From: a virus
Lineage: Duplodnaviria > Caudoviricetes
Length of the DNA stretch: 64,000 nt
Reading direction: 5' to 3' (one strand)
IMG/VR virus record: IMGVR_UViG_3300037454_000194
Coordinates: 6,212-70,211 of that record
Positions 12,251-37,719 of the stretch are shown here, one piece after another. Every line of letters starts with the position of its first letter. The stretch's first letter is position 1. A program made the translations under genes and the position numbers. The notes beneath the pieces were generated by a model. It had not been told where the DNA came from. It saw nothing but the letters and a program-made list of their open reading frames with translations, and did no database searches.

Positions 12251-12268
12251 TTTTCAACTCGTATAATG
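12251..12268 (+). promoter_or_regulatory. Phage promoter motif
   Basis: TTTTCA ACTCG TATAAT G, then ACCG/CGGT hairpin. Confidence 0.8.
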
Positions 12269-12310
12269 GACCGTGTAAAAAGCGGTACTACTTTATAAGG
12301 AGGTCTTTAT

Positions 12311-12697
12311 ATGGAAGACAAAAAAATAGTAATCATCGGGGACGACGGAAAACCCGACGAGAAAGCGATGTTCTATGAGAAAGCAAAGGAGTTTCTCAAG
12401 GACGTAGGAAACAAGGCGATGTCTGTAACCAAAGAAACGTTTAACTTCGTTCGTGACAACAAAGAGACCATAGCCTTTATGGTCCCGATTATCACTGGTA
12501 TTGTTGCAAAAGTTGGCAGCAATTCTGGTGGTGGTCGGAACTATCGGGAGGACTCAATGTTTTACGATAGGAGCACAGGAACGTACTGGCAGCTTCGCCG
12601 AAAGATGACGAACAGAGAGATGTCGGAATACCTGGAACGTCGCGAAAACGGTGAAAAACCCGATGAAATTCTCTATTCCATGAGACTGCTGAAGTAA
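12311..12697 (+). CDS. Hypothetical membrane-associated protein (cassette gene)
   Basis: Promoter 12251, RBS AAGGAGG, terminator 12714. Confidence 0.75.
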   Translation: MEDKKIVIIGDDGKPDEKAMFYEKAKEFLKDVGNKAMSVTKETFNFVRDNKETIAFMVPIITGIVAKVGSNSGGGRNYREDSMFYDRSTGTYWQLRRKMTNREMSEYLERRENGEKPDEILYSMRLLK

Positions 12698-12713
12698 AGT
12701 AAGGAGGTGACAT

Positions 12714-12746
12714 GAGAGGTGTTGGCTGAAAAGTTCAATGCCTCTC
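12714..12746 (+). terminator. Cassette 3' hairpin
   Basis: GAGAGGTGTTG/CAATGCCTCTC. Confidence 0.65.
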
Positions 12747-12753
12747 AAATTTT

Positions 12754-13026
12754 ATGAACGAAATTCAAAATGTGAAGGCTGAATTCAAGTCGAGCATCGA
12801 AAGACTTGAGGCTCTTAAGGCACAGGAATGGGATACCATTAAGGACCTCATGTATCTGGACCTCGAAGATCCGATGAACGATGAAGCTCACAGGCAGGCT
12901 ATCGAGGCACACACGCTTTCCATCCACGTTATCAACATGCTTATAGAGCTCTCACGAAATGGTATAGATCTTCTCGGTGACCTTAACAATCCAGATATTG
13001 GTATTAAGACCATACTGAAAACCTAA
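12754..13026 (+). CDS. Hypothetical protein
   Basis: 90-aa helical ORF filling the gap between cassettes. Confidence 0.6.
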   Translation: MNEIQNVKAEFKSSIERLEALKAQEWDTIKDLMYLDLEDPMNDEAHRQAIEAHTLSIHVINMLIELSRNGIDLLGDLNNPDIGIKTILKT

Positions 13027-13034
13027 CCACAAAA

Positions 13035-13052
13035 TTTTCAATCGCTATAACG
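13035..13052 (+). promoter_or_regulatory. Phage promoter motif (variant)
   Basis: TTTTCA ATCGC TATAAC G. Confidence 0.7.
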
Positions 13053-13128
13053 GAGAGGTGTAACGGGACTGTGACCTTTGAATGAGCAATAGCTTGTTCA
13101 CTGGGATGATCAGTTCCTTATACCTTTC
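13052..13128 (+). ncRNA. Long structured 5' leader or small RNA
   Basis: Stems 13053-63/13118-28, 13065-71/13111-17, 13079-87/13092-100 with G-U pairs; starts at the promoter G. Confidence 0.6.
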
Positions 13129-13160
13129 ACTTCATTATATTTTTAAGGAGGGTTCCACAC

Positions 13161-14090
13161 ATGAAAGGAATCAACGTAAATGGGTCCACGGTAAAGTCTC
13201 TTCTTAAGAACGGGGCAAAGTTCGTGGAAAAGCAGGCACCAGCAATTTGCGCAGGTATTGCAGTTGCTGGTCTGATTGGAGCGGTCGTATCTGCTGTAAA
13301 GGCCGGTCCTGAACTGAAGGAGGCACTGGAAGAAGCGCATATCAGAAAGAACGAGGAGGCTCTCAAGATGCGCAGAGAAGGTAGTGATGATATTCCTATC
13401 GAAGAACTCAACCTCAAGGAAAAAGCTCCTATCTACGCCCGGCATCTGTGGAAGACAACAGTTTATGGTGTAATTTCCATCGTATTTATTGCCGCATCGG
13501 TATGCTTTGGTCATAAGCAAATCAAGACTCTTACGGTACTTGCAGCGGCCGCAGAGTCAAACCTTATCAACTTCGAGGGCGCAGTCAAAGACGTCGTTGG
13601 TGATAAGAAGTTTGACGAGATTAAGCGCAAGGTACTTGACAACGCGCCCGACCCGCAGGAAGAATTCATCATCGAGACTGGACAGGGTGATACCCTTTGC
13701 TATGAACCGTGGTTCCGTACGTACTTCCGTATGAGCATTGAGGCGGCGAAGAGCATTGCTAAAGACTGTGAGCTCTCGTATCACAAGGGCGGAGAACTTA
13801 CCTTTGATGAAATCTACGAGCGGTACCATCTTAGCAAGGCACCCAATATTGCAGAAATCATGCGCCGCTTTAACGAAGGTAGAGAAGAAGAGGACCTTCT
13901 TAGCGACCATGGTTACTTCTCAGATCCAGAGGGTGAATTCAACTATCCGCCGTCCTTTGAACCGTATAGCAAGGAAGTGCTCCTTAACGGAAAGGAAGAA
14001 ACTTGCTATGTCGTAGCGTTCAACAGACCTAAGTCTCGCTGGATGTACGAGCACGAAAGTGAGAAGTTCTTTCGTCGGAAGAATCGCTGA
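13161..14090 (+). CDS. Conserved phage protein with N-terminal TM (DUF6353-like), paralog of 18530
   Basis: FVEKQAPAICAGIAVAGLIGAVVSAVKA start and YARHLWKT/ISIVFIAASVCFGHK segment parallel to the 18530 ORF. Confidence 0.65.
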   Translation: MKGINVNGSTVKSLLKNGAKFVEKQAPAICAGIAVAGLIGAVVSAVKAGPELKEALEEAHIRKNEEALKMRREGSDDIPIEELNLKEKAPIYARHLWKTTVYGVISIVFIAASVCFGHKQIKTLTVLAAAAESNLINFEGAVKDVVGDKKFDEIKRKVLDNAPDPQEEFIIETGQGDTLCYEPWFRTYFRMSIEAAKSIAKDCELSYHKGGELTFDEIYERYHLSKAPNIAEIMRRFNEGREEEDLLSDHGYFSDPEGEFNYPPSFEPYSKEVLLNGKEETCYVVAFNRPKSRWMYEHESEKFFRRKNR

Positions 14091-14256
14091 CGAATGGGAA
14101 AGCTTTCATGAGCCTCTTGTAGACTTCGATGATGACCCGTATACAGACGAGGAAATCAGAGAAGCTACAAGAGACTACGTACGAGAAATGGTTGAAGAGG
14201 GTCTTGAAACATAGACCCTCTAATTCCATTCTAACAATTCAAAATAGGAGGACTTT

Positions 14257-14490
14257 ATGGCACTCTTTCAGAAACTTACTAAGAAGGTCGCTGGCAGTGT
14301 AAAGGACACAGTCAAAGAAACCGTTCGAGAAGAAACCCATAAGACAACAGAGGAACTAAAGAGCGATGTTATTGGAAAAGTAAAGGAGTATCTTCCCCAG
14401 ATTGTGGCAATGGCATGCGGTCTGATATTCCTTTATGCCGCAAGAAGACCCGTACCGGTCGTGGTAAAGGTTGTCGTCAAGCAGGTATAA
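14257..14490 (+). CDS. Small membrane-anchored hypothetical protein
   Basis: RBS AGGAGG; C-terminal hydrophobic segment. Confidence 0.65.
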   Translation: MALFQKLTKKVAGSVKDTVKETVREETHKTTEELKSDVIGKVKEYLPQIVAMACGLIFLYAARRPVPVVVKVVVKQV

Positions 14491-14494
14491 GCCT

Positions 14495-14713
14495 ATGTAT
14501 AAGTTCAGACGAGTTATATTTATAGGAGCGGACCTGTTTGCATATTGGATTACTGTTTTCATGGAAATAAATCTGTTTTTGCATCTATATGCCATGCTCG
14601 GTGTAGGTTTTGATGACTATAATCTTACAATGATGAGCATGGAACTACCTATTATAGCTTTCGGTGCGTTCCTAAGTGTCCTTGCGGAAGGGGCACTTGA
14701 GAGATTCGGCTGA
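14495..14713 (+). CDS. Small two-TM hypothetical protein
   Basis: Two hydrophobic segments; weak RBS. Confidence 0.5.
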   Translation: MYKFRRVIFIGADLFAYWITVFMEINLFLHLYAMLGVGFDDYNLTMMSMELPIIAFGAFLSVLAEGALERFG

Positions 14714-14801
14714 ACAATAGAAGTATCAATTAGCAGTATTGACTTGAAGTATTGAATCCTTAACCCCAGCACACATTTATATTTTTAAGGAGGACTTCAA
14801 G

Positions 14802-15431
14802 ATGGCTGAAGTTAAAGATGTCAAAGCGCCTGAGTCAAACTACAAACCGAAAGATTCCAAAGAAAAGAAGGTTATCTCTACTGGTAAGATTAAGGAGAAA
14901 ACCTTCTGGGCAAGAGTGAAGGATAGCTTCATCAGCGAAGAGGTACATGACGTAAAGTCGTATCTTGTGTTTGATATCGCTATTCCTGCCGTAAAGCGTA
15001 CTCTTCGTTCTCTTCTTGTAAACACTGTTGACATGACACTCTTTGGCAAGCCTATGGGTGACGAGAGAAAGTCAGAACAGCGTGGAGGTTCGACATACAT
15101 CGCATATGACAGAGCCTATGACCGTGCGTATGGTGGCGGACCTGCAAGAGGAGAGCGTCAGAAGAACAATAATCTCACAGTCGGCATCCGAGAGCTTGAC
15201 CGAGTCATTTTCAATGAGAAATCCGATGCAGTAGACGTGCTCTCATTCCTCTTTGACAACATTGAGGAATACGGAGTTGCGTCTGTTGCGGATTTCCTTG
15301 CCGCTGCAAATGTTGAGGTCACACCCATTGCTCACAAATGGGCATGGACAGACCTCAGAGGAGCATCTGTTGAAGAGTGTCCGGACGGAAGTGGATACTA
15401 CATCAGATTCCCAAAGACAAAACCGATTTAA
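14802..15431 (+). CDS. Conserved hypothetical phage protein
   Basis: RBS AAGGAGG; EEYGVASVADF..WAWTDLRGASVE..GYYIRFPK C-terminal motif; host-like codon usage. Confidence 0.75.
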   Translation: MAEVKDVKAPESNYKPKDSKEKKVISTGKIKEKTFWARVKDSFISEEVHDVKSYLVFDIAIPAVKRTLRSLLVNTVDMTLFGKPMGDERKSEQRGGSTYIAYDRAYDRAYGGGPARGERQKNNNLTVGIRELDRVIFNEKSDAVDVLSFLFDNIEEYGVASVADFLAAANVEVTPIAHKWAWTDLRGASVEECPDGSGYYIRFPKTKPI

Positions 15432-15824: not shown

Positions 15825-16739
15825 ATGGGTAAACCTAGAAAGGAAGTAGCTCTAATCGACATGATGATCTCCATCCTCGATAGAGTAAAGAACACGCTTG
15901 AGCTCATCAAAGAAGACAAGATGAGCGTCAAAGAAGCTTGCAGACGTAATGATATTTCATATGCTGCCGTACGCCGTATCCTCTTTGCGACAAACTGGGA
16001 GGAGCTTGAGGACGAAACGGAATACGAAAACTTCAAGAAGAAATTCTCAGAGACCATTCCCCTCTATCATTGGACTGAGATTCTATTTTGTGATGTATTC
16101 GCGCTCCCTCGTAACCCTGATTCCATTACCAAAATGCCTCCTGATGTACGAGAGACTGTTGAAAAGGCAGTCCATAGTCTTACAGAACGCGAGGAAAAGG
16201 TTATCAGACTCTTCTACGAGGACAACATGACCAAGGAAGAGGTCGCTGCTGAGATTGGTAGAAGCTACGAGAGAGTGAGACAGATTAAGGCAAAGGCTAT
16301 GAGGAAGCTCAAGCACCCCTCACGCATGGGCTATACTGTTTTTGGAGACGGTTACTACTGCTCCAAGAGAAAAGCCTACGATGATGTATACAACGACACG
16401 GTTTTGCAGGCTCGTAACGATGAAGCAAACAAGCTCAGAATCGTTGTTGAGGAGCGAAAGAAGCAGATTCAAGTAATTGACTCCATGTCTCTCCCTAGAG
16501 GATTCTTTGGTACAGAAGAAATCTCTGAACTTAATCTCTCTGTAAGAAGCTTCAACTGTCTTTGGAGAGCGGGTATCCATACCATCGAGGACCTTCGTAA
16601 TACAACATACGATGAGCTCAGCAAGGTGCGCAATCTCGGTAAGAAATCCCTTGATGAGATTCTAGATGTCATGGAGAGAGAAGGAATTGAGCTCAACAGT
16701 GTAAAACTTGATAAGAATGATAAGGAGAATTCAAAATGA
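15825..16739 (+). CDS. Sigma70 region-4 HTH fused to an RNA polymerase alpha C-terminal domain
   Basis: [45 protein letters not shown] (sigma4); [40 protein letters not shown] (alpha-CTD). Confidence 0.9.
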
Positions 16740-18407: not shown

Positions 18408-18486
18408 GAGAGGTACGGATGGTGTAACTGGTAACACACTCGCTGGAACGCGAGAGATTGTTGGTTCGAGTCCAACTCCTATCTCT
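18407..18486 (+). ncRNA. tRNA-like cloverleaf with 6-nt anticodon loop and extended, bulged acceptor stem, forming a 5' leader
   Basis: D arm GTGT/ACAC, CTCGC-TGGAAC-GCGAG, T arm GTTGG-TTCGAGT-CCAAC; no CCA. Confidence 0.7.
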
Positions 18487-21904: not shown

Positions 21905-21922
21905 TTTTCAGTTTCTATAATG
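21905..21922 (+). promoter_or_regulatory. Phage promoter motif
   Basis: TTTTCA GTTTC TATAAT G. Confidence 0.8.
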
Positions 21923-23784: not shown

Positions 23785-24259
23785 GTACAATGGCTACTTT
23801 TTGTATCTTCTAAGAGTCATAGGTGTCGAAGAGGATGATATCTTAGTCAAGAACTTAGTGCGGATGTTTGAGCGAGAGTACTATTGGAAAAATCCGATCG
23901 ATAGCTCTATAACAGGCCATGTTGACGAGCTACGAGCCAATGCCATGAGATACGGAGATGTAAGTCCTACTGATATTCCAAATAGACCTGTATCAGTGTT
24001 AGAGACTCTTACTGCTCTTGCTATACTGATTGACTTAAAGCTCTTATACGATGAGGATAATCCAGGCGGGAACGTCGGATTATATTTTATGGACCTCGTA
24101 GAAGAGCTTGGGTTTGACTGTGACAAGGACAGTATTGACTCCGCTATCGACGACTTTCTGGATGGCAAGAGAAAGATAGCGAAACTCGGAGACACTCTAT
24201 GGCAACAATGCAATAACAAGTTCTCAGAATACTTTGACATCATGACAGGCGACGAGTGA
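23768..24259 (+). CDS. Conserved hypothetical phage protein
   Basis: RBS GGAGGAGG region; PVSVLETLTALA motif. Confidence 0.7.
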   Translation: MKIFCEYNGYFLYLLRVIGVEEDDILVKNLVRMFEREYYWKNPIDSSITGHVDELRANAMRYGDVSPTDIPNRPVSVLETLTALAILIDLKLLYDEDNPGGNVGLYFMDLVEELGFDCDKDSIDSAIDDFLDGKRKIAKLGDTLWQQCNNKFSEYFDIMTGDE

Positions 24260-24283
24260 TATTTTACAAGCATACTCTCAACA

Positions 24284-24301
24284 TTTTCAAGTCATATAAT
24301 G
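24284..24301 (+). promoter_or_regulatory. Phage promoter motif
   Basis: TTTTCA AGTCA TATAAT G, then ACTCGG/CCGGGT hairpin. Confidence 0.8.
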
Positions 24302-24354
24302 GACTCGGAGATACCGGGTTCCTAGATGACTTATATTTATAGGAGGTAATACTT

Positions 24355-24636
24355 ATGGCTATTGTGAGAACGGTGTTCAAAGGAGTGAGTCACACACTCG
24401 GAGAAGTAGCAGTAGTTGGATTAGCTCTCGGAACTGCCTGGGCGTGTGGTTTCGTGAAAGGATCCAACCTGAAATCTGAGGTGCGTGGCTTTTGCAACCG
24501 TATCGAGAAAGACCTCAAGGAAACCATGAAGAACACGGAATCAAAGGAACCTGCTGCAGAACACGAAGCGGAGTCCGAACGGGGAACCACTGCTCCCCCT
24601 ATCAAAGTGAGTAGTAACGACCAGCCGGAGGACTGA
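24355..24636 (+). CDS. Membrane-anchored protein with acidic tail (cassette gene)
   Basis: Promoter 24284, RBS AGGAGG, terminator 24643. Confidence 0.75.
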   Translation: MAIVRTVFKGVSHTLGEVAVVGLALGTAWACGFVKGSNLKSEVRGFCNRIEKDLKETMKNTESKEPAAEHEAESERGTTAPPIKVSSNDQPED

Positions 24637-24642
24637 CCGGCA

Positions 24643-24679
24643 AGGCAGGGCCCTAGAGAAATCTGGGGCTCTAGTCCTT
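24643..24679 (+). terminator. Cassette 3' hairpin
   Basis: AGGGCCCTAGA/TCTGGGGCTCT. Confidence 0.65.
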
Positions 24680-24711
24680 ATATTTTCTGAAATTTAAAAA
24701 GGAGTATTGAT

Positions 24712-24888
24712 ATGAAAGTACAATTCATGAGATATAGTCTCGTTGATGGTAAGTATGTAAAGCTTGGTAAGGTAAGAGACATGACACAGGAGTCTATCGA
24801 ACTCAAACTGCAGGAGTACTCTGAGAAGAATCCTTACTCGCATTACTACGTAGTCTATCCTGAATCACAAAAATTTCAACGCGTATAA
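24712..24888 (+). CDS. 58-aa hypothetical protein (not in ORF track); its stop is the TAA of the next promoter's TATAAT
   Basis: RBS AAAGGAG; MKVQFMRYSLVDGKYVKLGK..SQKFQRV. Confidence 0.65.
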   Translation: MKVQFMRYSLVDGKYVKLGKVRDMTQESIELKLQEYSEKNPYSHYYVVYPESQKFQRV

Positions 24889-24890
24889 TG
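24873..24890 (+). promoter_or_regulatory. Phage promoter motif
   Basis: ATTTCA ACGCG TATAAT G. Confidence 0.75.
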
Positions 24891-24985
24891 GTCTAAGACC
24901 GACGTTGCCACTCCAATGGCAAAACTTTGTTCTTGAGACTGATTTGATTTGAGCCACAGATAGAACGGACAAGTTCAGTGGCTAT
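24890..24985 (+). ncRNA. Candidate small RNA (ORF-less cassette)
   Basis: Promoter 24873, stems GTCTAAGA/TCTTGAGAC and TTGCCA/TGGCAA, terminator 24951; no RBS-led ORF. Confidence 0.5.
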
Positions 24986-24990
24986 TTCTT
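24951..24990 (+). terminator. Cassette 3' hairpin
   Basis: AGCCAC/GTGGCT with inner GAAC/GTTC. Confidence 0.55.
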
Positions 24991-24995
24991 TTATA

Positions 24996-25013
24996 TTTTC
25001 AACGCCTCTAATG
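24996..25013 (+). promoter_or_regulatory. Phage promoter motif (variant)
   Basis: TTTTCA ACGCC TCTAAT G, then RBS directly. Confidence 0.7.
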
Positions 25014-25029
25014 AAAGGAGGTGATAGCT

Positions 25030-25200
25030 ATGACAGAAAACATTAGAGCACGAGAAGCTGCTAGAATGTATGTTACGTACGTTAAGGAACTTAAAACGAT
25101 TGACAAAGAAAAAGATCCTTATACGTATGAGAAAACATTACAACTGGTTTGGATTTGTGCTATGATGTTAAAAAGATATAACGTAAAGATCACACTTTAA
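25030..25200 (+). CDS. 56-aa hypothetical protein (cassette gene, not in ORF track)
   Basis: Promoter 24996, RBS AAAGGAGGTGA, terminator 25209. Confidence 0.7.
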   Translation: MTENIRAREAARMYVTYVKELKTIDKEKDPYTYEKTLQLVWICAMMLKRYNVKITL

Positions 25201-25208
25201 CTTATATT

Positions 25209-25240
25209 TAGAGCTGCTAATTCAGTGGCTCTATTTTCTT
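25209..25240 (+). terminator. Cassette 3' hairpin
   Basis: TAGAGCTGC/GTGGCTCTA followed by TTTTCTT. Confidence 0.65.
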
Positions 25241-25267
25241 AAATAAAAAAAATAGGAGGAATCCAAT

Positions 25268-25834
25268 ATGTCTAGTAAAAAACACGATGACGAATATGTT
25301 GAGATAGAAAATTATCCTGATTATTATATAAATAGAAGCGGGGATGTTATAAGTAAAAAAGGTATAAAAGAAAGACACCTATCAACGAAACCATTAGATA
25401 AAGGATATAAAAATGTTAAAATGATAAACAAGAATGGAGAGAGACGGAGAGAATTTATACATAGAATATTAGCAAAAACTTTTATAGAAAATACAGACAA
25501 TCAATCAATCGTACGCCATCTCGATGATAATAAATTAAATAATACTTTGGATAATTTAGCATGGGGAAATCAGCAAGATAATACAGATGACGCAGTTCGA
25601 AATGGAATTATAATACGAAATAGTATATATTGCTATGAAACAGATACCATTTATACGAGCGCTCATGAGGCTTCACAAAAAATCGGAATAAGAGAATCTA
25701 GCATACAACAAGCAGCTAGAGGTCTTATGTGCCATGCTAAAGGATATCACTTTTGTTATGAAAAAGACATGGACGAAAAATTAAGCAATATTAATGAATG
25801 GATTGTTTGCAAAAATAAACCACATAATCGTTAA
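25268..25834 (+). CDS. Free-standing HNH homing endonuclease (NUMOD4-like N-terminus, HNH, C-terminal NUMOD1-like)
   Basis: IENYPDYYINRSGDVIS, IHRILAKTF..IVRHLDDNKLNNTLDNLAWGNQQDN; markedly AT-rich relative to its neighbours. Confidence 0.9.
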   Translation: MSSKKHDDEYVEIENYPDYYINRSGDVISKKGIKERHLSTKPLDKGYKNVKMINKNGERRREFIHRILAKTFIENTDNQSIVRHLDDNKLNNTLDNLAWGNQQDNTDDAVRNGIIIRNSIYCYETDTIYTSAHEASQKIGIRESSIQQAARGLMCHAKGYHFCYEKDMDEKLSNINEWIVCKNKPHNR

Positions 25835-25851
25835 CGTTTGAACACAAAAGA

Positions 25852-25926
25852 GCCCTAGTACCCTCAATCGGTTAGAGGATCGGTCTTATAAACCGGAAGT
25901 TCTGGGTTCGAGTCCCAGCTAGGGTA
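25852..25926 (+). tRNA. tRNA-Ile(UAU)
   Basis: Acceptor GCCCTAG/CTAGGGT, D arm, anticodon stem TCGGT/ACCGG with loop CT-TAT-AA, T arm CTGGG-TTCGAGT-CCCAG; no encoded CCA. Confidence 0.9.
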
Positions 25927-25947
25927 TTGTATTTTTCAACCTCATTT

Positions 25948-25965
25948 TTTTCAACTCGTATAATG
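25948..25965 (+). promoter_or_regulatory. Phage promoter motif
   Basis: TTTTCA ACTCG TATAAT G, then GNRA hairpin. Confidence 0.8.
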
Positions 25966-26012
25966 GACCGTTTGAGAAAGCGGTACTATTTTACTAAAGG
26001 AGGTCTATACTT

Positions 26013-26384
26013 ATGACCGAAAAAGAAATGATTGAATATCTGGAGTCGCATGGATACAAAGTGCGAAGAAAGGATAGTTGGACAAAACCAACATTCGACA
26101 AACTTGCAGAATATGCCTTTGAGGTCGGATATCTTGACTCAGATGACCCTAAAATACACAAAGTATACAATAGGGATAAATGGGGAAAGATAAATTCGAT
26201 CTTAAGGCACATTGCAAGAAGACGATTTGATTGGAAGAAAGGAGGAAGCTGGTCCTGGGAATTCGTAGAAGAAAACAGGAGAGACGAAGCCAGAGAATTG
26301 ATCATGTATTACGGAAAGAAGATAATAGAAGGTAAAATCGTATTTAATCGGAAAACTAAAAAGTATGAGGAAGTCCCTGATTAA
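26013..26384 (+). CDS. Hypothetical basic protein (cassette gene)
   Basis: Promoter 25948, RBS AAAGGAGG, terminator 26372. Confidence 0.75.
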   Translation: MTEKEMIEYLESHGYKVRRKDSWTKPTFDKLAEYAFEVGYLDSDDPKIHKVYNRDKWGKINSILRHIARRRFDWKKGGSWSWEFVEENRRDEARELIMYYGKKIIEGKIVFNRKTKKYEEVPD

Positions 26385-26405
26385 TTTCAGGGGCTCTCCC
26401 TTTTT
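26372..26405 (+). terminator. Cassette 3' hairpin overlapping the ORF end
   Basis: AGTCCCTGA/TCAGGGGCT followed by T-run. Confidence 0.65.
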
Positions 26406-26409
26406 ATAT

Positions 26410-26427
26410 TTTTCAACCCTTATAATG
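26410..26427 (+). promoter_or_regulatory. Phage promoter motif
   Basis: TTTTCA ACCCT TATAAT G, then hairpin. Confidence 0.8.
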
Positions 26428-26473
26428 GACCGTTTGAGAAAAGCGGTACTATTTTACTAAAGGAGGTACGTAT

Positions 26474-26800
26474 ATGCGTATCAATATCTTTACGGCGATA
26501 CCATTAGGAGTGTATCTGCACAAAGTTGAAAAGGAAAGAAAGGATGGATGGGAAGACACGGATAAATGGATCCAAGATGCGGCGAAGCTGATTTACGAAA
26601 GCGAATGTAGCTGCGGAAAGAAAATGAACAAAAGCAAATTTGGTTCATTGGAAAACTGTCATGCTGCGTATGATCTTCTGAAATGGAGAGCTTCGGATCT
26701 TGGGCTCGATCTGATTCTTTTCACCATGGATGCCTGTAACTGGGCAGATCGGTACAAAAGATATGTGAAGGATTATCCGAAATCCAAAAGTAAAATCTAA
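26474..26800 (+). CDS. Hypothetical protein (cassette gene)
   Basis: Promoter 26410, RBS AAAGGAGG, terminator 26806. Confidence 0.75.
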   Translation: MRINIFTAIPLGVYLHKVEKERKDGWEDTDKWIQDAAKLIYESECSCGKKMNKSKFGSLENCHAAYDLLKWRASDLGLDLILFTMDACNWADRYKRYVKDYPKSKSKI

Positions 26801-26805
26801 TCTAA

Positions 26806-26840
26806 TGAGAGGGGCTAACTAATCAGCTCCTCTCAATTCT
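26806..26840 (+). terminator. Cassette 3' hairpin
   Basis: GAGAGGGGCT/AGCTCCTCTC. Confidence 0.7.
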
Positions 26841-26859
26841 CTCCTTTTAAGTCACAAAT

Positions 26860-26877
26860 TTTTCAGCGACTATAATG
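26860..26877 (+). promoter_or_regulatory. Phage promoter motif
   Basis: TTTTCA GCGAC TATAAT G, then GAGGA/TCCTC. Confidence 0.8.
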
Positions 26878-26921
26878 AGGAGGATAACAAGGTCCTCCCG
26901 CTTGTGAAAAGGAGGATAACT

Positions 26922-27167
26922 ATGAAGAAAATGGTTTATATGATTTCGGACACATGCTGGGGAAATAGCATGCTTGTAGACGAAGGCGTATTCATGAACG
27001 AGAACGACGCAAAAGCAAGAGCGAAAGAAATTGCTGAGGCTGATGCGAAGGATCGCAATGGACACGTTGAGGAAAAGATTGACAAGTACAGCGGAGAAAC
27101 CGAGTATTGGGTATACTGGAAAACATGCAGCCACTGCTTCAGAGTAGCAAAACTGGAAGCAAGATAA
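26922..27167 (+). CDS. Hypothetical protein (cassette gene)
   Basis: Promoter 26860, RBS AAAGGAGG, terminator 27180. Confidence 0.75.
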   Translation: MKKMVYMISDTCWGNSMLVDEGVFMNENDAKARAKEIAEADAKDRNGHVEEKIDKYSGETEYWVYWKTCSHCFRVAKLEAR

Positions 27168-27179
27168 CTTTGTTGAACA

Positions 27180-27207
27180 GAGGCGTTGAACGTGCAATCA
27201 ATGCCTC
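27180..27207 (+). terminator. Cassette 3' hairpin
   Basis: GAGGCGTTGA/TCAATGCCTC. Confidence 0.65.
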
Positions 27208-27224
27208 ATAGTTCATGCTCAACA

Positions 27225-27242
27225 TTTTCAATCTCTATAATG
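27225..27242 (+). promoter_or_regulatory. Phage promoter motif
   Basis: TTTTCA ATCTC TATAAT G, then CGAG-GAAA-CTCG. Confidence 0.8.
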
Positions 27243-27280
27243 CCGAGGAAACTCGAGTATTTTATAAGGAGGAGATCATT

Positions 27281-27520
27281 ATGATCTTAGATGAAATCAG
27301 AAAGGCAATCATGGTAAAGAAGACGAGGACGCTTCAAATCATCAGTGCGGACGTTTTCGGGAATGAAATCGTCCCGACTGTTGAAAAGAAATGCTACTTT
27401 GTCCTTGACCAGACCTGGGATCTCATGAAGGTCAAGATCAAAGAAAAATACACACGGGTAGACGAATTAGACGAGGACCATTTAATCGCCTACGTCAGAA
27501 AGGAGGTAAAAAAGGATTAA
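27281..27520 (+). CDS. Hypothetical protein (cassette gene)
   Basis: Promoter 27225, RBS AAGGAGG, terminator 27527. Confidence 0.75.
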   Translation: MILDEIRKAIMVKKTRTLQIISADVFGNEIVPTVEKKCYFVLDQTWDLMKVKIKEKYTRVDELDEDHLIAYVRKEVKKD

Positions 27521-27526
27521 ACATAA

Positions 27527-27565
27527 AAACTCCAGCCTGAGATAATATCAAAGGCTATGGAGTTT
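27527..27565 (+). terminator. Cassette 3' hairpin
   Basis: AAACTCCA-GCCT/AGGC-TA-TGGAGTTT. Confidence 0.65.
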
Positions 27566-27612
27566 GTCAAGCCTTATATTCTTTACGAAACAAACTTTAA
27601 GGAGGATTTTAC

Positions 27613-27768
27613 ATGAAGTATCCTACACCCAATCAGAAGAAAGCGGTGTTCAACAATCAGAGCTATCGCAGTAATCGCAAGACACGGAATACTTTCTACG
27701 GGAGACACGATCTCTTGAAGCGTTTCCATGTCACCGACAAACACAAGTCCTGGAAGGAGGAAATCTAA
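27613..27768 (+). CDS. 51-aa basic protein (not in ORF track)
   Basis: RBS AAGGAGG; stop overlaps the next ATG. Confidence 0.65.
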   Translation: MKYPTPNQKKAVFNNQSYRSNRKTRNTFYGRHDLLKRFHVTDKHKSWKEEI

Positions 27769-28364
27769 TGGACTTCACAAGAAATGGAAGAGAAGTGAGT
27801 TATATTCACTACTCTAAAACTGACTGCGACCACTTTGACAAATCCAGAATGTATCCCATACGCAATAAGGAAAACTGGATCAAGCCTTATGGCGGTTTAT
27901 GGGCATCTCCTGTTGACGCAGAGCGGGGATGGAAAGACTGGTGCGAATGCGAAGACTTCAGAGAATGCAAGGAAGAATACTCCTTCACATTCAAACTTCG
28001 AGACCCGTCAAAAATCTACTTTGTGGATTCTAAGGAGGCCTACGACAATCTCGTAGAACATTACGGGATTAAGAACACGCGCTCCTATGGCTACACCCCG
28101 AACTACATCGACTATGAGAAAATGATATCTGACGGTTGGGATGCTTTAGAGCTCTCACTCACAGACTACTGGCAGCTTTACGACCTCTTCTACGGATGGG
28201 ACTGCGATTCTATCATTATATTCAATGCAGAGGCTATTGTCGAAGAAAAGGAGGACGATGAGGATGACGAAAGCGACCTTGCCGCCGTATTCGAAAGAGA
28301 GGCTATGGGTGAGGGGGTATTCGGAGAATGGGAGACCCTCGTATCTCATAACCAGTTCTCCTGA
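27768..28364 (+). CDS. Conserved phage protein with KPxGGLWxSP and YGWDCDS motifs (possible ADP-ribosyltransferase-like fold)
   Basis: RBS AAGGAGG; motifs read from the translation; fold assignment is speculative. Confidence 0.6.
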   Translation: MDFTRNGREVSYIHYSKTDCDHFDKSRMYPIRNKENWIKPYGGLWASPVDAERGWKDWCECEDFRECKEEYSFTFKLRDPSKIYFVDSKEAYDNLVEHYGIKNTRSYGYTPNYIDYEKMISDGWDALELSLTDYWQLYDLFYGWDCDSIIIFNAEAIVEEKEDDEDDESDLAAVFEREAMGEGVFGEWETLVSHNQFS

Positions 28365-28476
28365 TAGGTCTGTCTATTATATTTACCGGATAAAGAAAGG
28401 AGGTGAAGTTATCCGGGTTGGAAAAGGCAAGAACCCACAAAAACTTGAGATGATGTTTTTAAATGGGAGCTTGTAA
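28264..28476 (+). CDS. Small conserved phage protein overlapping the upstream gene by 101 nt
   Basis: RBS AAGGAGG 9 nt upstream; ERLWVRGY..YLITSSPDRSVYYIY..VGKGKNPQKLE. Confidence 0.6.
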   Translation: MTKATLPPYSKERLWVRGYSENGRPSYLITSSPDRSVYYIYRIKKGGEVIRVGKGKNPQKLEMMFLNGSL

Positions 28477-28497
28477 ATGGGCGATGAGGTCTCAACA

Positions 28498-28515
28498 TTT
28501 TCAACCCGTATAATG
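28498..28515 (+). promoter_or_regulatory. Phage promoter motif
   Basis: TTTTCA ACCCG TATAAT G, then GNRA hairpin. Confidence 0.8.
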
Positions 28516-28562
28516 GACCGTTTGAGAAAGCGGTACTATTATTTAGGAAAGGCGGTAGTCTT

Positions 28563-28889
28563 ATGAAAATTATGAAAAGACGACACAAGAAAAACACGAA
28601 AGGAGGTATCATCCTTGCTCTGATCTCCACAGTTGGAGTGATTGGCTGGATCCGTAGCATTATCGCTTGCAAGGAGCTCGATGAGACCACGAAGGAGAAG
28701 AATGACGTGACTGAAGAACGCGACTGTTACAGATCATTCATTCATCTCTGGAGGGATACATTGAAACGGCATGCAGAGAACGATAATGACTGGAAAGCCC
28801 AATACAAAATGCGTGGCAAAGACAGCAAGGAAATTCTCAAGGAAGTGGTCGAATACTATTACGAGGACTATGACGACGTAACTGAATAA
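28563..28889 (+). CDS. Membrane-anchored hypothetical protein (cassette gene)
   Basis: Promoter 28498, N-terminal TM, terminator 28902. Confidence 0.75.
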   Translation: MKIMKRRHKKNTKGGIILALISTVGVIGWIRSIIACKELDETTKEKNDVTEERDCYRSFIHLWRDTLKRHAENDNDWKAQYKMRGKDSKEILKEVVEYYYEDYDDVTE

Positions 28890-28901
28890 TCTAAATCTAA
28901 C

Positions 28902-28935
28902 AAAAGCTGGTGGGATTCAATTCCTATCAGCTTTT
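28902..28935 (+). terminator. Cassette 3' hairpin
   Basis: AAAAGCTGGTGGGA/TTCCTATCAGCTTTT. Confidence 0.75.
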
Positions 28936-28970
28936 ATATTCTTTAAGAAAGCAAATTAAGGAGGAATTTT

Positions 28971-29522
28971 ATGATCGAAACGGAAGTAAAGTACATCATT
29001 TGCGATAGCACTGAGCAGAATTTCTTGACTGATCCTGTAACAAAGGCGATGTCAAAGTATAGAGAAAACGCATACGAATGGGAGATGAAGAAGTCTGCAG
29101 AGGCTGTTCTCCCCAAAGTGGCTCCTGGCTGCAAGGTTATCGAGTCCTATACTTACAAGGCAGATGTGGACGACTGTCTTATGATGGATTGTCAGACTAT
29201 TGAGAACTTTCTTGATATTGTAAAAGAGTCTCAGACGCAGGTGCCAATCCTCGAAAGGCGCCTTGACGTTCTCAATAGGCAGATAACAGACATTGAACAT
29301 TTCATCCAGTTTAAAGACCTGAACGTCCCATCAGGCTACAAGATCTACAAGAAGCTCCAAGAGAAGCGTCGCGATAGAGCATTCGTCAAAGGTAAGATTC
29401 GTATCCTTAAAGATATTCGTAACTTACGGATTGACGACAAAGTGCTTGAAGACCTCGTGAAGCTCTTTAAGGAGCAGCTGACCTATAAACCAAGAGAACT
29501 TAACTTCGAGGAGATGCTTTGA
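28971..29522 (+). CDS. Conserved coiled-coil phage protein
   Basis: RBS AAGGAGG; RQITDIEHFIQFKDLNVPSGYKIYKKLQEKRRDR. Confidence 0.75.
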   Translation: MIETEVKYIICDSTEQNFLTDPVTKAMSKYRENAYEWEMKKSAEAVLPKVAPGCKVIESYTYKADVDDCLMMDCQTIENFLDIVKESQTQVPILERRLDVLNRQITDIEHFIQFKDLNVPSGYKIYKKLQEKRRDRAFVKGKIRILKDIRNLRIDDKVLEDLVKLFKEQLTYKPRELNFEEML

Positions 29523-29525
29523 TAT

Positions 29526-30131
29526 ATGGAACACAAGAACTACGTCGAATTCACAGATGATATTCTGGAATTCTTTGAAGATGAGAAACGCAAGGGAGAC
29601 AAGGTCTATCTTATATTCTTCTGTAGTGGTGACTGCTATCCACATTGTGATGTTTTGGGTAATGCAATTGACTATCACTATAATTTCTCTCAGGAAGTTA
29701 TTAGTGATATTGCAGAACACTATCCGAACTTCTATCGTGGTGGATGGGAGTTCAACAGGAGATTCAGAAAGTGGCGCAAGATGAGAGAACCTGGAGTATG
29801 GCAGTCTATCACTCACACATGCTCTATTGGGGAGATTGAGTTTACAGAGAAGGTTAAAGATATTCTCGGACTTGTTACTCGCGTTTGGTTCGATGATGAG
29901 GTCCAAGATGAGAACTTCAAAGAGTCCTTTAAGATGTTAAAGCAGAGGATATTCACAGAATGGTACTTCACCAAAGACAAAAACTCAAGTCCTATCCACC
30001 TTATCATTCCGAGATTTGGTGGAGGAGCTGATAGACTTGATGACGAGACGTTTAAGAGGATGATATTTGACGAATTTAAAGACCTCATGGATAAGAATGC
30101 AGTAAGAATAAGTGTTGTAAGGAGAGTATAA
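29526..30131 (+). CDS. Divergent macrodomain-like protein (Poa1p/TARG1/DarG-like)
   Basis: C-terminal HLIIPRFGGGADRLDDETFKRMIFDEF matches the MPRIGCGLDRL.W..V..II pattern; N-terminal FFCSGD echoes HCISxD. Confidence 0.55.
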   Translation: MEHKNYVEFTDDILEFFEDEKRKGDKVYLIFFCSGDCYPHCDVLGNAIDYHYNFSQEVISDIAEHYPNFYRGGWEFNRRFRKWRKMREPGVWQSITHTCSIGEIEFTEKVKDILGLVTRVWFDDEVQDENFKESFKMLKQRIFTEWYFTKDKNSSPIHLIIPRFGGGADRLDDETFKRMIFDEFKDLMDKNAVRISVVRRV

Positions 30132-34646: not shown

Positions 34647-35610
34647 ATTCGAAAATGTCAAAGTTGCGGGTTTTGAGCCTGCATTCCGTGGTATGAGAAA
34701 TCCTAAGAACAGTTGGGAGAAGAGTGACTCATTTTTCAACGGAGGAGATGTTCAGCTTGGGCCTAATGATTTGAAACTTGCTCTCCAGCTTTGCAAAGGA
34801 GGTAGTGTCCATGCGAAGTTCAGAAGAATGATTGTTGTATATGTGGATATTACGGCTCCTCTTTACTGGTGGAAGGAATACGACACATATAAGGTTGGAA
34901 CCGTTGCGAATTCCTGCTCTACCATGCATAAGATTCAGGAGAAAGAGTTTACAGAAGAGGACTTTAGCATCGAGCATCTTGAAGAGTTCAAATGGACAGA
35001 TGAGATGGGAGACCATCGATTCGATATCCGACGCGATTTTGTTCAGACAATCAAAGCATTAAACTGGGCAAGAGAAAAATTTATTGAAACAAATGACAAA
35101 AGATACTGGTGGCAGATGATTCAGCTTCTTCCGTCGTCTTACAACCAGAAGCGGACGGTTATGCTCTCGTATGAGGTGCTCGCTAACATCTACCATGGCG
35201 GACGCTTAACTCATAAACTTGACGAGTGGCGTATTGACTTTATGAAGTTCATAGACACTCTTCCTTATAATGAGCTCATCAAGACAGCTCCTGCAAAGGG
35301 CGGTATTTCTTATGATGAGGTGTACGCTTGGCTGCTTAGTGCTGTCGACCTCATGACTCCAGAGCAGTATCTTCCTCTTTACAAGATGTTTAGGTCTCCT
35401 CGGTATGCAACTGTTATTGAGGCGATGCGGCCATCCGCAGAAGGGGCTCGGGATCTTACAGATGATGAGGCTGAAAGATATGATGATTGGATTAACCACC
35501 AGTCTATTTCTCTGCCAGGATCTGTTCTCACTAGGACTGAGATAGAAAGAGTTCTAAAAGGAGAGGAGGTGCCGCATGATGAGTACGAAGGAAGCGATGA
35601 ACACGTTTGA
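34639..35610 (+). CDS. Divergent ThyX-like (flavin-dependent thymidylate synthase-related) phage protein with C-terminal extension
   Basis: RGMRNPKNSWEKSDS, HAKFRRMIVVYVDITAPLYWWKEYDTYK..NSCSTMHKI, QLLPSSYNQKRT; the canonical RHR motif is absent. Confidence 0.55.
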   Translation: MLKFENVKVAGFEPAFRGMRNPKNSWEKSDSFFNGGDVQLGPNDLKLALQLCKGGSVHAKFRRMIVVYVDITAPLYWWKEYDTYKVGTVANSCSTMHKIQEKEFTEEDFSIEHLEEFKWTDEMGDHRFDIRRDFVQTIKALNWAREKFIETNDKRYWWQMIQLLPSSYNQKRTVMLSYEVLANIYHGGRLTHKLDEWRIDFMKFIDTLPYNELIKTAPAKGGISYDEVYAWLLSAVDLMTPEQYLPLYKMFRSPRYATVIEAMRPSAEGARDLTDDEAERYDDWINHQSISLPGSVLTRTEIERVLKGEEVPHDEYEGSDEHV

Positions 35611-35926
35611 CCTTGCAGATCAGCTTGATATACGCATCAAGGCTTTCGATGAGGATATAGCAAAACTTGACAATGAACAGAAAGTAATAAGAGAAGCAAT
35701 CGAAGAGGAACGAAAACGTCATGACGACACTATGAAAAACTTAGAGCGTCGCCTGAACAAAAGTATCGAATGCCGAAAGAAAATGTTCAAGCAGAAGGCA
35801 TACCTTTACGAAGCAATGTGCGTCCTTGTTCCTAGTAGAGACTGTAGAGGATGCGTGAATGTCCCTGCTAAAGAGAGGACATACGTAAGGCAGATGGAGG
35901 AGGCTCTTTGTGATGAAAGCACGTAA
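35576..35926 (+). CDS. Hypothetical coiled-coil protein
   Basis: RBS GAGGAGGTG. Confidence 0.7.
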   Translation: MMSTKEAMNTFDLADQLDIRIKAFDEDIAKLDNEQKVIREAIEEERKRHDDTMKNLERRLNKSIECRKKMFKQKAYLYEAMCVLVPSRDCRGCVNVPAKERTYVRQMEEALCDEST

Positions 35927-36536
35927 CGAATCTGGTTTCCACATTATATCTGGACAAACAAAAGATGATGAGAACCTTCGTGCTTATATTTGTCCTAATT
36001 GCGGCAATACTGACGAGGAAATTAAAGCATATCATGATAGGGTCGGCTATGTAACAGTAAGATGCTGGGGAGGTTTTGGACGTAAGAAATACCATTACCT
36101 CCCTCATAAGTGCACTTCTTGTGGGTGTAAGTTCGTGGCATGGGAGTCTAGCAAGGAAATTAATGGTGGAGTCGTTGGACTTTTATTTGCTGTTGCATTC
36201 TTTGCAGCCCTTGGGTCAGTACTCATGGCATTGGCTATAACGGTCTGCACTGTACTGGGGTTCACTGTTGGAATGTGCCTGTTTATAATATTGCGTCTAT
36301 GCTGTGCTATTGATGAGTCTACCGATGACGAAGATAAGGGCATGGAATCTATAGAAGATGACATGAGTTTTATGTGCTTTGATGATGATGAGGACGAGGA
36401 TGAAGACTTGACCGATGATTTGCTTTCTCATCTAGCAGATAACACGACGATATCTTCAGACGATTTAAGAGAGGTTTTGAGGGATAGAATCAAATCACAA
36501 ACGGCTTTTATGTCTGATAAGATTTGGAAATTGTGA
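35913..36536 (+). CDS. Zinc-ribbon plus two-TM protein with acidic tail
   Basis: ICPNCGN..HKCTSCGCKF; two hydrophobic segments. Confidence 0.7.
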   Translation: MKARNESGFHIISGQTKDDENLRAYICPNCGNTDEEIKAYHDRVGYVTVRCWGGFGRKKYHYLPHKCTSCGCKFVAWESSKEINGGVVGLLFAVAFFAALGSVLMALAITVCTVLGFTVGMCLFIILRLCCAIDESTDDEDKGMESIEDDMSFMCFDDDEDEDEDLTDDLLSHLADNTTISSDDLREVLRDRIKSQTAFMSDKIWKL

Positions 36537-36553
36537 AAGTGAGGGAAATAACA

Positions 36554-37078
36554 ATGACTGATATTCAGCTGGCAAAGAACGTTATGTATATTTGGGACAA
36601 GGAGTGGCCGCCTAAGGAAGAGTCCCTTATGAGAGATTGCCATCATGGAGGAGGAATCTATGGATACGGTTACTCCTTTGATGATATTATGGAGGAGCTT
36701 CAGAAGGATGAGCCTGATATGGAGATCGTGTTTGATTATATTTTCAACGCGTTCTACTATGAAGTTCTGAAATTCTGTGGTTGCGGGAGCCCTCCTGAGA
36801 TGATGATGGCACTTTTAGACCTTCTGGAGTGCTATACTATTGACGAGGACTACGACCGTTTATCTGTACCCTATTTCGGTTTTACAGGTGAGAAACTCTT
36901 TAAGGAGAAGTTTCGTACAGAAGATCCAAGACTTATGGAATTCATGGTGAAGTATCTAGAAACTCTTGACCTTTGTGAGCACGGTACTTCATGGCATGGT
37001 TCATGGCTCACTTCTAAAGGTATTACTTACAGAGAGCTTTTAAGAAAATGCAAAGAAAGGGAGTTTGAGGATATATGA
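36554..37078 (+). CDS. Conserved phage protein (CGCGxP / EHGxS..WLT motifs)
   Basis: LKFCGCGSP; LCEHGTSWHGSWLTSKG. Confidence 0.7.
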   Translation: MTDIQLAKNVMYIWDKEWPPKEESLMRDCHHGGGIYGYGYSFDDIMEELQKDEPDMEIVFDYIFNAFYYEVLKFCGCGSPPEMMMALLDLLECYTIDEDYDRLSVPYFGFTGEKLFKEKFRTEDPRLMEFMVKYLETLDLCEHGTSWHGSWLTSKGITYRELLRKCKEREFEDI

Positions 37079-37323
37079 GCGATTTCAGCAACCTCATTGA
37101 GGACAGACTAAATGAAATCAACGAAAACATAAAAGATGCAGAAGACGAGAAAGAGTTTTTACTCGCAGTTTTGCACGTTGTAGATTATATTTCTGGAGTA
37201 AATCCTCCTATCAATAAAGACCTTGATGTCATTAGTAATTACGTTACACGAAAAATCGGTGATGCGGAAGACCGTATTAAGCGTAACGAGAAGGCTCGTG
37301 ATATTTGGATGGAAAGGGAGTAA
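37075..37323 (+). CDS. Hypothetical protein
   Basis: RBS GAGGA; coupled start. Confidence 0.7.
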   Translation: MSDFSNLIEDRLNEINENIKDAEDEKEFLLAVLHVVDYISGVNPPINKDLDVISNYVTRKIGDAEDRIKRNEKARDIWMERE

Positions 37324-37327
37324 ATTT

Positions 37328-37594
37328 GTGACTGGATACAAAGAACCGACAAAAGGTTATATTTCGACTACTGTCTTTGATACCAATTACTTTGAGATTG
37401 GTAGGGCGTTTTGTATGAAGAGAAACGTTCCTCCCTGCATGGTTCGTGACGTTCTCATTGCGGGGTTTGACGAAGGGCTGTCTGAGATGATAGTGTTCCT
37501 CTTTGACAAAGGCGAGCTTTCAAAGGACACAATTGATATTAGAGACTACATGGACGGGAAGATCGAGTTTCTGGAGCTCGATACGAAGGAATGA
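37328..37594 (+). CDS. Hypothetical protein
   Basis: RBS AGGGAG, GTG start. Confidence 0.55.
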   Translation: MTGYKEPTKGYISTTVFDTNYFEIGRAFCMKRNVPPCMVRDVLIAGFDEGLSEMIVFLFDKGELSKDTIDIRDYMDGKIEFLELDTKE

Positions 37595-37654
37595 TATTTT
37601 CCTTCGGACTGCATCTCACTTTTTTCGAATAGTCCTACGGACGAGATCTCAATT

Positions 37655-37672
37655 CTTTCAATCTCTATAATG
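37655..37672 (+). promoter_or_regulatory. Phage promoter motif
   Basis: CTTTCA ATCTC TATAAT G, then hairpin. Confidence 0.75.
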
Positions 37673-37719
37673 GATCCGTATGGAAAGCGGGTACTATTGA
37701 TTGAAAGGAGGGAGAACCT

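Follow-up and report, generated by a model that had tools for sequence, protein, structure and literature searches.

Stem-loops in register with a phage promoter class as likely start-site markers and putative 5'-terminal message stabilisers

Late transcripts of phage T7, such as that with the phi10 (gene 10) leader, start with GGGAGA and carry a stem-loop at their 5' terminus. In the early promoters of the phage N4 virion RNA polymerase, a hairpin is located in the DNA upstream of +1, with a fixed stem of 5-7 base pairs (bp), a loop of 3 nucleotides (nt) and conserved bases. Bacterial messages are stabilised against RppH, RNase J1 and RNase E by 5' stem-loops, as in E. coli ompA and B. subtilis ermC and aprE, or by 5'-proximal Shine-Dalgarno (SD) or polypurine sequences, as in phage SP82 and hbs (PMC3997798). 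RppH of B. subtilis acts on 5' ends with at least 2-3 unpaired nucleotides, preferably with a G at position 2, and RNase J1, which degrades from the 5' end after RppH has acted, is blocked by bound ribosomes and 5' structures (PMC3997798). In Firmicutes, 5'-end-dependent decay is classically blocked by a stem that includes the 5' end or by a ribosome bound to a 5'-proximal SD. The present work concerns a 64,000-nt stretch of phage DNA, hereafter the window, which covers bases 6212-70211 of the 70,211-bp IMG/VR virus record IMGVR_UViG_3300037454_000194 (completeness rating 92%). It describes a class of predicted promoters in this window, the stem-loops that directly follow nearly all of them, and the phage RNA polymerase that most likely reads them.

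The phage-specific consensus of the promoters is tCTCAA-N4-TTCAAC-N3-TATAAT-GG, a conserved linear motif of 26 nt with conserved boxes 3-5 bp and 14 bp upstream of TATAAT. The sequence TTCAACYCGTATAATGG has 18 matches with at most three mismatches in the window, compared with 0.33 expected. A scan with a weight matrix derived from these 18 matches yielded 25 promoters on the plus strand, seven of them beyond the original 18, and none on the minus strand (Table 1). The hexamer reads TATAAT in 21 of the 25, the remainder having TATAGT, TATAAC and, twice, TCTAAT. It is followed by a G without exception (25/25) and by a second G in 18 cases. Neither a sigma-70 -35 element (TTGACA at 16-18 bp) nor a TGn extension was found among the window promoters.

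The leaders downstream of these promoters fold in a common register. Counted from the first base past TATAAT (nt 1), a local stem begins at nt 1-3, that is 0-2 nt past the hexamer, in 20 of the 25 leaders, while in three further ones the first bases are paired in a longer fold or the leader enters a tRNA. No stem is present at 24998 and 48215, the two promoters with TCTAAT, where the SD GAAAGGAGGTG occupies nt 2-11 instead. Among the first 18 promoters, the outermost pair of the best hairpin lies on the first base past TATAAT in 16, and five of the seven promoters added later by the weight matrix have a stem from nt 1-3. The first bases (nt 1-2) of the long leaders at 13052, 24890, 46689 and 21922 are paired within larger folds. 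The 77-nt leader at 13052-13130 has a closing stem from nt 2 and an energy of -37.8 kcal/mol (z=-5.9 compared with shuffled sequences), and the whole fold of about 130 nt at 21922 is no better than shuffled sequences (z=-0.16).

For hairpins anchored at nt 1-3, the median energy is -5.65 kcal/mol, compared with -1.45 kcal/mol for a control set of 600 random GG positions (Mann-Whitney p=2e-5); no signal is left once the anchor lies 3 nt or more farther downstream. The stems of 4-9 bp and loops of 3-10 nt are unrelated in sequence; several loops are GAGA or GAAA, some being of the GNRA type. In a swap test, in which the 5' half of one leader was joined to the 3' half of another, the median changed from -5.8 kcal/mol for native to -0.15 kcal/mol for chimeric leaders (p=2e-11). 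Since the swap abolishes pairing, each 3' arm has co-varied with its own 5' arm. Furthermore, the plus strand folds at -6.3 kcal/mol compared with -3.0 kcal/mol for its complement (p=1e-4), and 20 of the 122 pairs in the leader stems are G·U pairs, which correspond to C·A mismatches on the opposite strand. The better folding of the plus strand and the G·U pairs indicate that the leader hairpin is a sense-strand RNA structure and not a cruciform or a palindromic protein site. As expected of a stabiliser, it is the structure rather than the sequence that is conserved, according to the swap test, and the strand asymmetry shows that it forms in the sense RNA.

Both arms can only be part of one RNA if transcription starts at or before the first base past TATAAT. 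It most likely begins at the invariant G at this position, which would place TATAAT at -6 to -1 and not at -12 to -7. This predicted geometry does not fit that of a sigma-70 promoter. Leaders that begin with an SD whose GGAG core lies at nt 5-9 (two in the window, one in Lactococcus phage P078 and two in the related 64-kb phage G001) support a start at this G, because the core would be split by a start of the sigma-70 type at about nt 7. With transcription starting there, the stems would lie within about 0-4 nt of the 5' end, the position expected of a stabiliser.

The candidate for the enzyme that reads the promoters is a protein of 968 amino acids (aa) encoded by the last gene of the window. 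It has a full-length match to phrog_4291 ('RNA-dependent RNA polymerase', E ~1e-285), helix-turn-helix (HTH) domains near residues 98-128 and 935-962, and a DFDGD motif at 541-545. Homologues with about 35-41% identity are encoded by the late or last gene in phages of Arthrobacter, Gordonia, Streptomyces, Rhodococcus and Bifidobacterium, as well as in phages of Lactococcus and Faecalibacterium and in human gut and oral phages. A supercluster of phages that have this RNA polymerase as their conserved HTH protein has been described, and HHpred identified it there as a YonO/QDE-1-like polymerase (bioRxiv 10.1101/842583). A literature search found no description of promoters, start sites or leaders for HTH-flanked YonO-like polymerases.

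All five relatives examined encode the same polymerase (about 35-44% identity) and share a promoter architecture consisting of a CGCA/CTCA box, a TT(A/T)CA box, N5, TATAAT and a purine. It occurs in 10 copies in Lactococcus phage P078, 7 in Arthrobacter phage Mudcat, about 8 in the oral phage D_HF5_2C and 12 in the IMG/VR phage G001, and was also found in the IMG/VR phage L135. The hosts of these relatives belong to at least two phyla (Actinobacteria and Firmicutes), and their GC content ranges from 36 to 56%. Promoter and polymerase co-occur in all six phages examined, this one included, in a sample made up of polymerase-bearing phages alone. Because the architecture crosses phyla and the polymerase is the conserved HTH protein of the group, the YonO-like polymerase most likely reads these promoters. 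No close relatives of the phage were found in IMG/VR, where the best polymerase identity was 39-44%, and an exact scan of IMG/VR for TTTCAAY-N3-TATAATGG gave only single chance matches among the matches listed.

Several variants of the promoter were observed. At 59930-59990, ahead of the nuclease-polymerase genes, the sequence ATCACA-gcc-TATAAT-GG falls below the weight-matrix threshold and is followed by a stem GGATGGACC/GGTCCAATCC that begins at nt 6 and not at nt 1. A similar conserved promoter is located about 0.9 kb ahead of the polymerase gene in high-GC relatives (L130-L144, Mudcat 46016). Upstream of the window, at bases 3289-3330 of the record (L147), TTTCAT-TTAC-TATAAT is followed by T instead of G; this variant comes after a tRNA-like 3' end, precedes an open reading frame (ORF) of the structural module and may be a differently regulated member of the promoter class. 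Near its left end, P078 has TTACATAAC-TATAGT-A.

The hairpins have a narrower distribution than the promoter class. In G001, hairpins anchored at +1 reach -4 kcal/mol or better at 7 of the 12 promoters, compared with 9% of controls; of the remaining five, two lack an anchored stem entirely, including one SD-first promoter. P078, Mudcat, L135 and D_HF5_2C have short, purine-rich leaders without structure, and no hairpins were found in them. For the leader ahead of the exonuclease-polymerase operon in eight relatives, RNAalifold found no consensus structure, and in single folds three of seven relatives pair from nt 1-2. Since most relatives with the same promoter and polymerase have no hairpin, the hairpin is unlikely to be required for initiation and would be a lineage-specific feature that is not part of promoter recognition.

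Seven of the leaders (12268, 15451, 24301, 25965, 26427, 28515 and 37672) share the form GGAC(N)CG...CGG(N)TACTAYT and are referred to as family 1. A sequence-only reading of the window, which preceded this analysis, had described those at 25965, 26427 and 28515 as near-identical; the first and the last are in fact identical and 26427 has one extra A in the loop. The proposed stem ACCGTTT/AAGCGGT with a GAGA loop is also the minimum-energy fold. In the four relatives at 12268, 15451, 24301 and 37672, the stem is kept, as had been stated, and a T added to the 5' arm is matched by a G added to the 3' arm as a T·G pair. A second group with GGTC at 9050, 39938, 40093, 40850 and 48601 was likewise found again and also folds. 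The same reading had taken covariation as a sign of selection on structure. This holds mainly for the unrelated leaders, on the grounds of the swap test and the strand asymmetry; within family 1, double-sided changes are few and consist of two or three inserted T·G pairs. Duplication of promoter-leader cassettes accounts for the close similarity of the family-1 copies, and the sequences of 25965, 26427 and 28515 agree almost completely as far as the SD. An alignment of family 1 with MAFFT misplaces the insertion in the 3' arm, and arm specificity was judged by the swap control instead.

Three other roles for the stems were considered and rejected. Most stems have no U tract, which excludes terminators or attenuators in general; a terminator-like flag was raised for three family-1 leaders alone (12270, 25967 and 26429), each with a weak ACTAYTTT tail, and no T run comes after the other leaders inspected. 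For RNase III sites, the stems are too short. As operator palindromes, they are unsuitable because their sequences differ and the G·U pairs make the strands asymmetric.

On balance, the leader stem-loops probably act as cap-like stabilisers at the 5' terminus that guard the phage messages from decay. About 25 transcription units would each start at tCTCAA-N4-TTCAAC-N3-TATAAT, with the HTH domains of the polymerase recognising the two upstream boxes. The first 12-28 nt of the RNA would then form a stem-loop in which the 5' end is part of a helix, and a strong SD at the 5' end would replace the stem in two units. Such a stem would keep a Firmicute-type RppH off the triphosphate end and RNase J out, resulting in longer-lived messages. 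An unpaired end would be vulnerable because 18 of the 25 predicted transcripts begin with GG, and a G at position 2 is preferred by the Bacillus RppH. Protection from RNase J and RppH by a 5'-terminal RNA stem had already been offered as one of two options by the sequence-only reading. It fits all computed features, from which we infer the start site, the promoter-reading enzyme and the stabilising effect.

A number of observations weigh against a stabiliser at the 5' end of transcripts made by the phage enzyme. Any primary sigma factor would find a perfect -10 element in the hexamer TATAAT, and the tRNAs of two phages (the one in the window and D_HF5_2C) begin 6 nt past the promoter hexamer, where a sigma-type start falls. 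A start 1-3 nt farther upstream is possible, since the stems often extend into TATAAT, allowing the stem to reach up to 3 nt inside the hexamer gives a slightly better median of -7.05 kcal/mol, and direct inspection of the sequence showed a purine after most stems. The two outermost pairs of all seven family-1 leaders (G1·U and G2-C with a bulge) are marginal, and the minimum-energy fold leaves the GG unpaired, which is why the argument from RppH is weaker for this family. The polymerase gene itself sits downstream of promoters of the same class (57220 and the variant at 59945), and the model does not explain the supply of the first polymerase molecules. A weak hint in favour of promoters active in situ comes from assembled contigs of a bovine-gut metatranscriptome, which cover 24312-24584, 25982-27506 (in pieces), 28531-28882 and 40873-41128; these blocks start 11-36 nt past five predicted starts, none of them just upstream of a promoter. 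Such contigs cannot resolve a start, however, and assemblies break at repeated leaders. Finally, a gut Clostridium-like Firmicute as the candidate host is a guess based on weak hints.

The first two of these observations lead to an alternative that is unlikely and should still be taken seriously, namely that TATAAT serves as the -10 element of the host sigma-A RNA polymerase, which is helped by a phage activator on the upstream boxes and starts about 7 nt downstream. In this case, any action of the inverted repeat would be confined to read-through RNA or to DNA. At T4 middle promoters, MotA and AsiA assist the host polymerase. MotA/AsiA-like help could come from a candidate activator at 15825-16739, a 304-aa protein that combines an N-terminal HTH with sigma-70 region 4 (E=2e-16) and an RNA polymerase alpha C-terminal domain (E=5e-22); judged by these domains, it may be a transcription-takeover or promoter-recognition factor and could redirect the host enzyme. 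The location of the polymerase gene behind promoters of the same class would also fit an early-host, late-phage scheme as in SPbeta (PMC5467207). However, with a start at nt 7 the 5' arm would not be transcribed, although its complementarity is highly specific, confined to the plus strand and anchored at nt 1, and the SD-first leaders would lose their SD core. Neither the -35 element nor the TG extension is there to support the hexamer, and the box architecture is kept across phages of Actinobacteria and Firmicutes whose conserved HTH protein is the polymerase (10.1101/842583).

It is rather improbable that the stem goes beyond a passive shield and serves as a self-mark or mechanistic aid particular to this polymerase lineage. 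As an aid, the nascent 5' hairpin would replace the missing lid and flap of the two-barrel enzyme and strip the RNA off the template at promoter escape. As a self-mark, it would spare the messages of the phage when the phage directs an attack against unstructured 5' ends in the course of host shut-off.

A direct part in initiation by the two-barrel polymerase, either as an N4-like hairpin in the non-template DNA or as a nascent-RNA hairpin that drives promoter escape, appears doubtful. The register between hairpin and promoter is exact and YonO-type enzymes have no lid, rudder or flap (PMC5467207), both of which would suit such a part, but the four relatives with unstructured leaders use the same promoter class and polymerase. 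Two promoters here and two in G001 also do without a stem, stem and loop sizes vary widely, and the G·U pairs argue against a structure in double-stranded DNA or in the template strand. The second option of the sequence-only reading, an N4-like DNA hairpin needed for initiation, is not supported: the stem lies downstream of the motif, its size is variable and it contains G·U pairs, and four of the five relatives are hairpin-free.

Equally doubtful is a family-1 regulon in which the stem and the ACTATT tail of the seven leaders bind a phage regulator, a role that would be compatible with stabilisation. Sequence conservation in these seven units includes the single-stranded tail, and a stem with a U-rich tail that is flagged as terminator-like makes attenuation-type control conceivable. 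Three of the seven are recent cassette duplicates identical through the SD, however, the other 18 units have unrelated stems, and no candidate regulator was identified. It is very improbable that the hairpins are functionless chance inverted repeats or by-products of cassette duplication, since at least 20 sequence-unrelated leaders share the register with the significance given above for the swap, random-position and strand comparisons and the pattern recurs independently in G001, even though the family-1 copies are paralogues and the 4-bp stems at 47910 and 24890 are individually weak.

Table 1. Predicted promoter-leader units and the candidate polymerase gene in the window (+1, first base past the hexamer).
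Feature	Start	End	Strand	+1	Basis
Promoter core TTCAAC-N3-TATAAT (9035-9049) and hairpin GGTCA/TGACT	9035	9064	+	9050	motif, fold
Promoter and 7-bp hairpin from nt 2 after TATAAT	11082	11121	+		weight matrix
Promoter and family-1 hairpin ACCGT/GCGGT	12253	12289	+	12268	motif, fold
TATAAC-variant promoter and 77-nt rod-like leader (13052-13130), upstream of ORF 13161	13037	13130	+		weight matrix, fold
Promoter and family-1 hairpin ACTCG/CGGGT (inserted T·G pair)	15436	15474	+	15451	motif, fold
TATAGT promoter ahead of tRNA-like gene; no separate hairpin	18392	18485	+		tRNA gene begins 6 nt past hexamer
Promoter and long leader, nt 2-8 closing a fold of about 130 nt	21907	22054	+		weight matrix, fold
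Promoter and 8-bp hairpin GGACTCGG/CCGGGTTC	24286	24321	+	24301	motif, fold
Promoter and leader, nt 1-9 closing a 51-nt fold; local GGTC/GACC stem as alternative	24875	24940	+		motif, fold
Weaker TCTAAT promoter, no hairpin; SD GAAAGGAGGTG from nt 1-2, ATG +18	24998	25032	+		weight matrix
Promoter and family-1 hairpin, GAGA loop	25950	25987	+	25965	motif, fold
Promoter and family-1 hairpin, extra A in loop	26412	26450	+	26427	motif, fold
Promoter and 7-bp hairpin GGAGGAT/GTCCTCC from nt 3	26862	26898	+		weight matrix
Promoter and CGAG-GAAA-CTCG hairpin from nt 3	27227	27258	+		weight matrix
Promoter and family-1 hairpin, same as 25965	28500	28537	+	28515	motif, fold
Promoter and family-1 hairpin ATCCG/CGGGT	37657	37695	+	37672	motif, fold
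Promoter and hairpin GGTCGA/TCGGCC	39923	39956	+	39938	motif, fold
Promoter and 8-bp hairpin GGTCATAT/ATGTGACT	40078	40114	+	40093	motif, fold
Promoter and hairpin GGTCGAG/CTTGACC	40835	40872	+	40850	motif, fold
Promoter and leader, nt 1-4 (GGAG) closing a 55-nt fold; whole leader z=-3.2	46674	46743	+		motif, fold
Promoter and weak 4-bp hairpin GGAA/TTCC	47895	47921	+	47910	motif, fold
Weaker TCTAAT promoter, no hairpin; SD GAAAGGAGGTG at 5' end, ATG +18	48215	48249	+		weight matrix
Promoter and GGTC-GAAA-GGCC hairpin	48586	48612	+	48601	motif, fold
Promoter and GCCT-GAAG-AGGC hairpin	56888	56914	+	56903	motif, fold
Promoter and GAAGG/CCTTC hairpin	57220	57251	+	57235	motif, fold
968-aa YonO/QDE-1-like single-chain two-barrel RNA polymerase, HTH at both ends	60876	63782	+		phrog_4291, DFDGD

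Two of the listed units contain further RNA features. The rod at 13052-13130 is either a leader or a small RNA. The tRNA-like gene at 18412-18485 scores 39 bits with the Rfam tRNA model and has an 8-nt anticodon loop (ct-GGAA-cg in the ARAGORN fold) and a mismatch in the acceptor stem.

All noteworthy long ORFs of the window are on the plus strand. The gene order starts with the tape-measure and tail genes (4-6821), followed by many small genes and the replication genes at 51-59 kb, with the polymerase last. The DNA of the phage was found in a bovine-gut metagenome, and part of the sequence is also present in a bovine-gut metatranscriptome. In a search with the endolysin, the match was limited to the peptidoglycan-binding domain, in metagenome-assembled genomes of Lachnospiraceae and Acutalibacteraceae, which is a weak hint at the host. 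A megablast search with positions 24000-30000 of the window against phage records gave no match.

Other observations concern the remainder of the window. A pentapeptide-repeat protein (E=5e-41) joined to DUF5758 is encoded at 38029-38823 and is possibly a DNA mimic. Tandem repeats of about 94 bp, each starting ...aaagTATATTTttgaggttgttatcagtcgc..., occupy 63785-64000, where they abut the polymerase gene and reach the end of the record. The assembly probably stopped here because of these repeats, which may represent the genome end or a packaging or late-control region. In the metagenome assembly graph, the promoter at 39923 is linked by branches to the leader belonging to 56888, since TTCAGCTCCTATAATG is common to both. 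Metagenome contigs also break at the repeated family-1 leaders, so that repeated promoter cassettes fragment assemblies.

The word T-[TG]ATATT[TC] is strongly strand-biased, with 209 copies on the plus strand compared with 11 on the minus strand of the window (131 compared with 4 for TATATT). Its median spacing is about 214 bp, with examples at 13136, 24332, 38004, 41188 and 43801. It is present in all three reading frames and densest in intergenic DNA directly ahead of SDs. The bias is weaker in G001 (33 compared with 10) and D_HF5_2C (70 compared with 26), and absent in P078 and Mudcat, where the most strand-skewed word is TTATGG (39:1 and 30:2). It is a putative oriented DNA or RNA signal.

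The stem-loop is an ordinary element of a known kind in a new setting, and its main value lies in the likely start site that it gives for an uncharacterised polymerase family. Its register would provide a start-site map from sequence only. As an internal ruler, the hairpins give a predicted start site that can be tested directly and set the promoter apart from a superficially similar host sigma promoter. Genes for HTH-flanked YonO-like polymerases mark a large supercluster made up of several hundred sequenced actinophages, lactococcal 1706-like phages and gut phages. Within this group, the 5' end is handled in different ways: by a stem here and in G001, with a 5'-terminal SD taking its place in two units of each phage, and by unstructured purine-rich leaders in the other relatives examined. 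This contrast between lineages represents a natural experiment on 5'-end protection in different hosts.

Compared with the described systems, the locus resembles each of them in part. As in T7 late transcription, the conserved part of the promoter ends at -1 (TATA|G), and a G(G) start is followed immediately by a stem-loop containing the 5' end, both of which are predictions here. In contrast to the Pol-I-like single-subunit T7 RNA polymerase, the candidate enzyme is a two-barrel YonO/QDE-1-like protein with HTH domains, and the predicted promoter is tripartite and ends in TATAAT. With the N4 early promoters it has in common a phage-encoded polymerase and a small hairpin near the start site. 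However, the hairpins lie downstream of the motif and not upstream as a recognised element, they are G·U-rich and variable in size instead of having a fixed geometry, and they are absent from most relatives. The probable reader is also no T7-like virion RNA polymerase, since the only polymerase candidate is the two-barrel, YonO-like one. The bacterial 5' stabilisers are similar in that the structure lies 0-2 nt from the presumed 5' end, depends on structure and not on sequence, and has an SD at the 5' end as its alternative in the two stemless units. Unlike in those, the stem, here a putative stabiliser, recurs systematically in almost all transcription units of one phage and is coupled to a promoter that would start with GG. 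The polymerase belongs to the subfamily with an HTH at both ends that characterises the actinophage, lactococcal 1706-like and gut phage supercluster (10.1101/842583). To the promoter class of this subfamily, with a motif that here ends in TATAAT, the 5' stem is added only in the present lineage and in G001.

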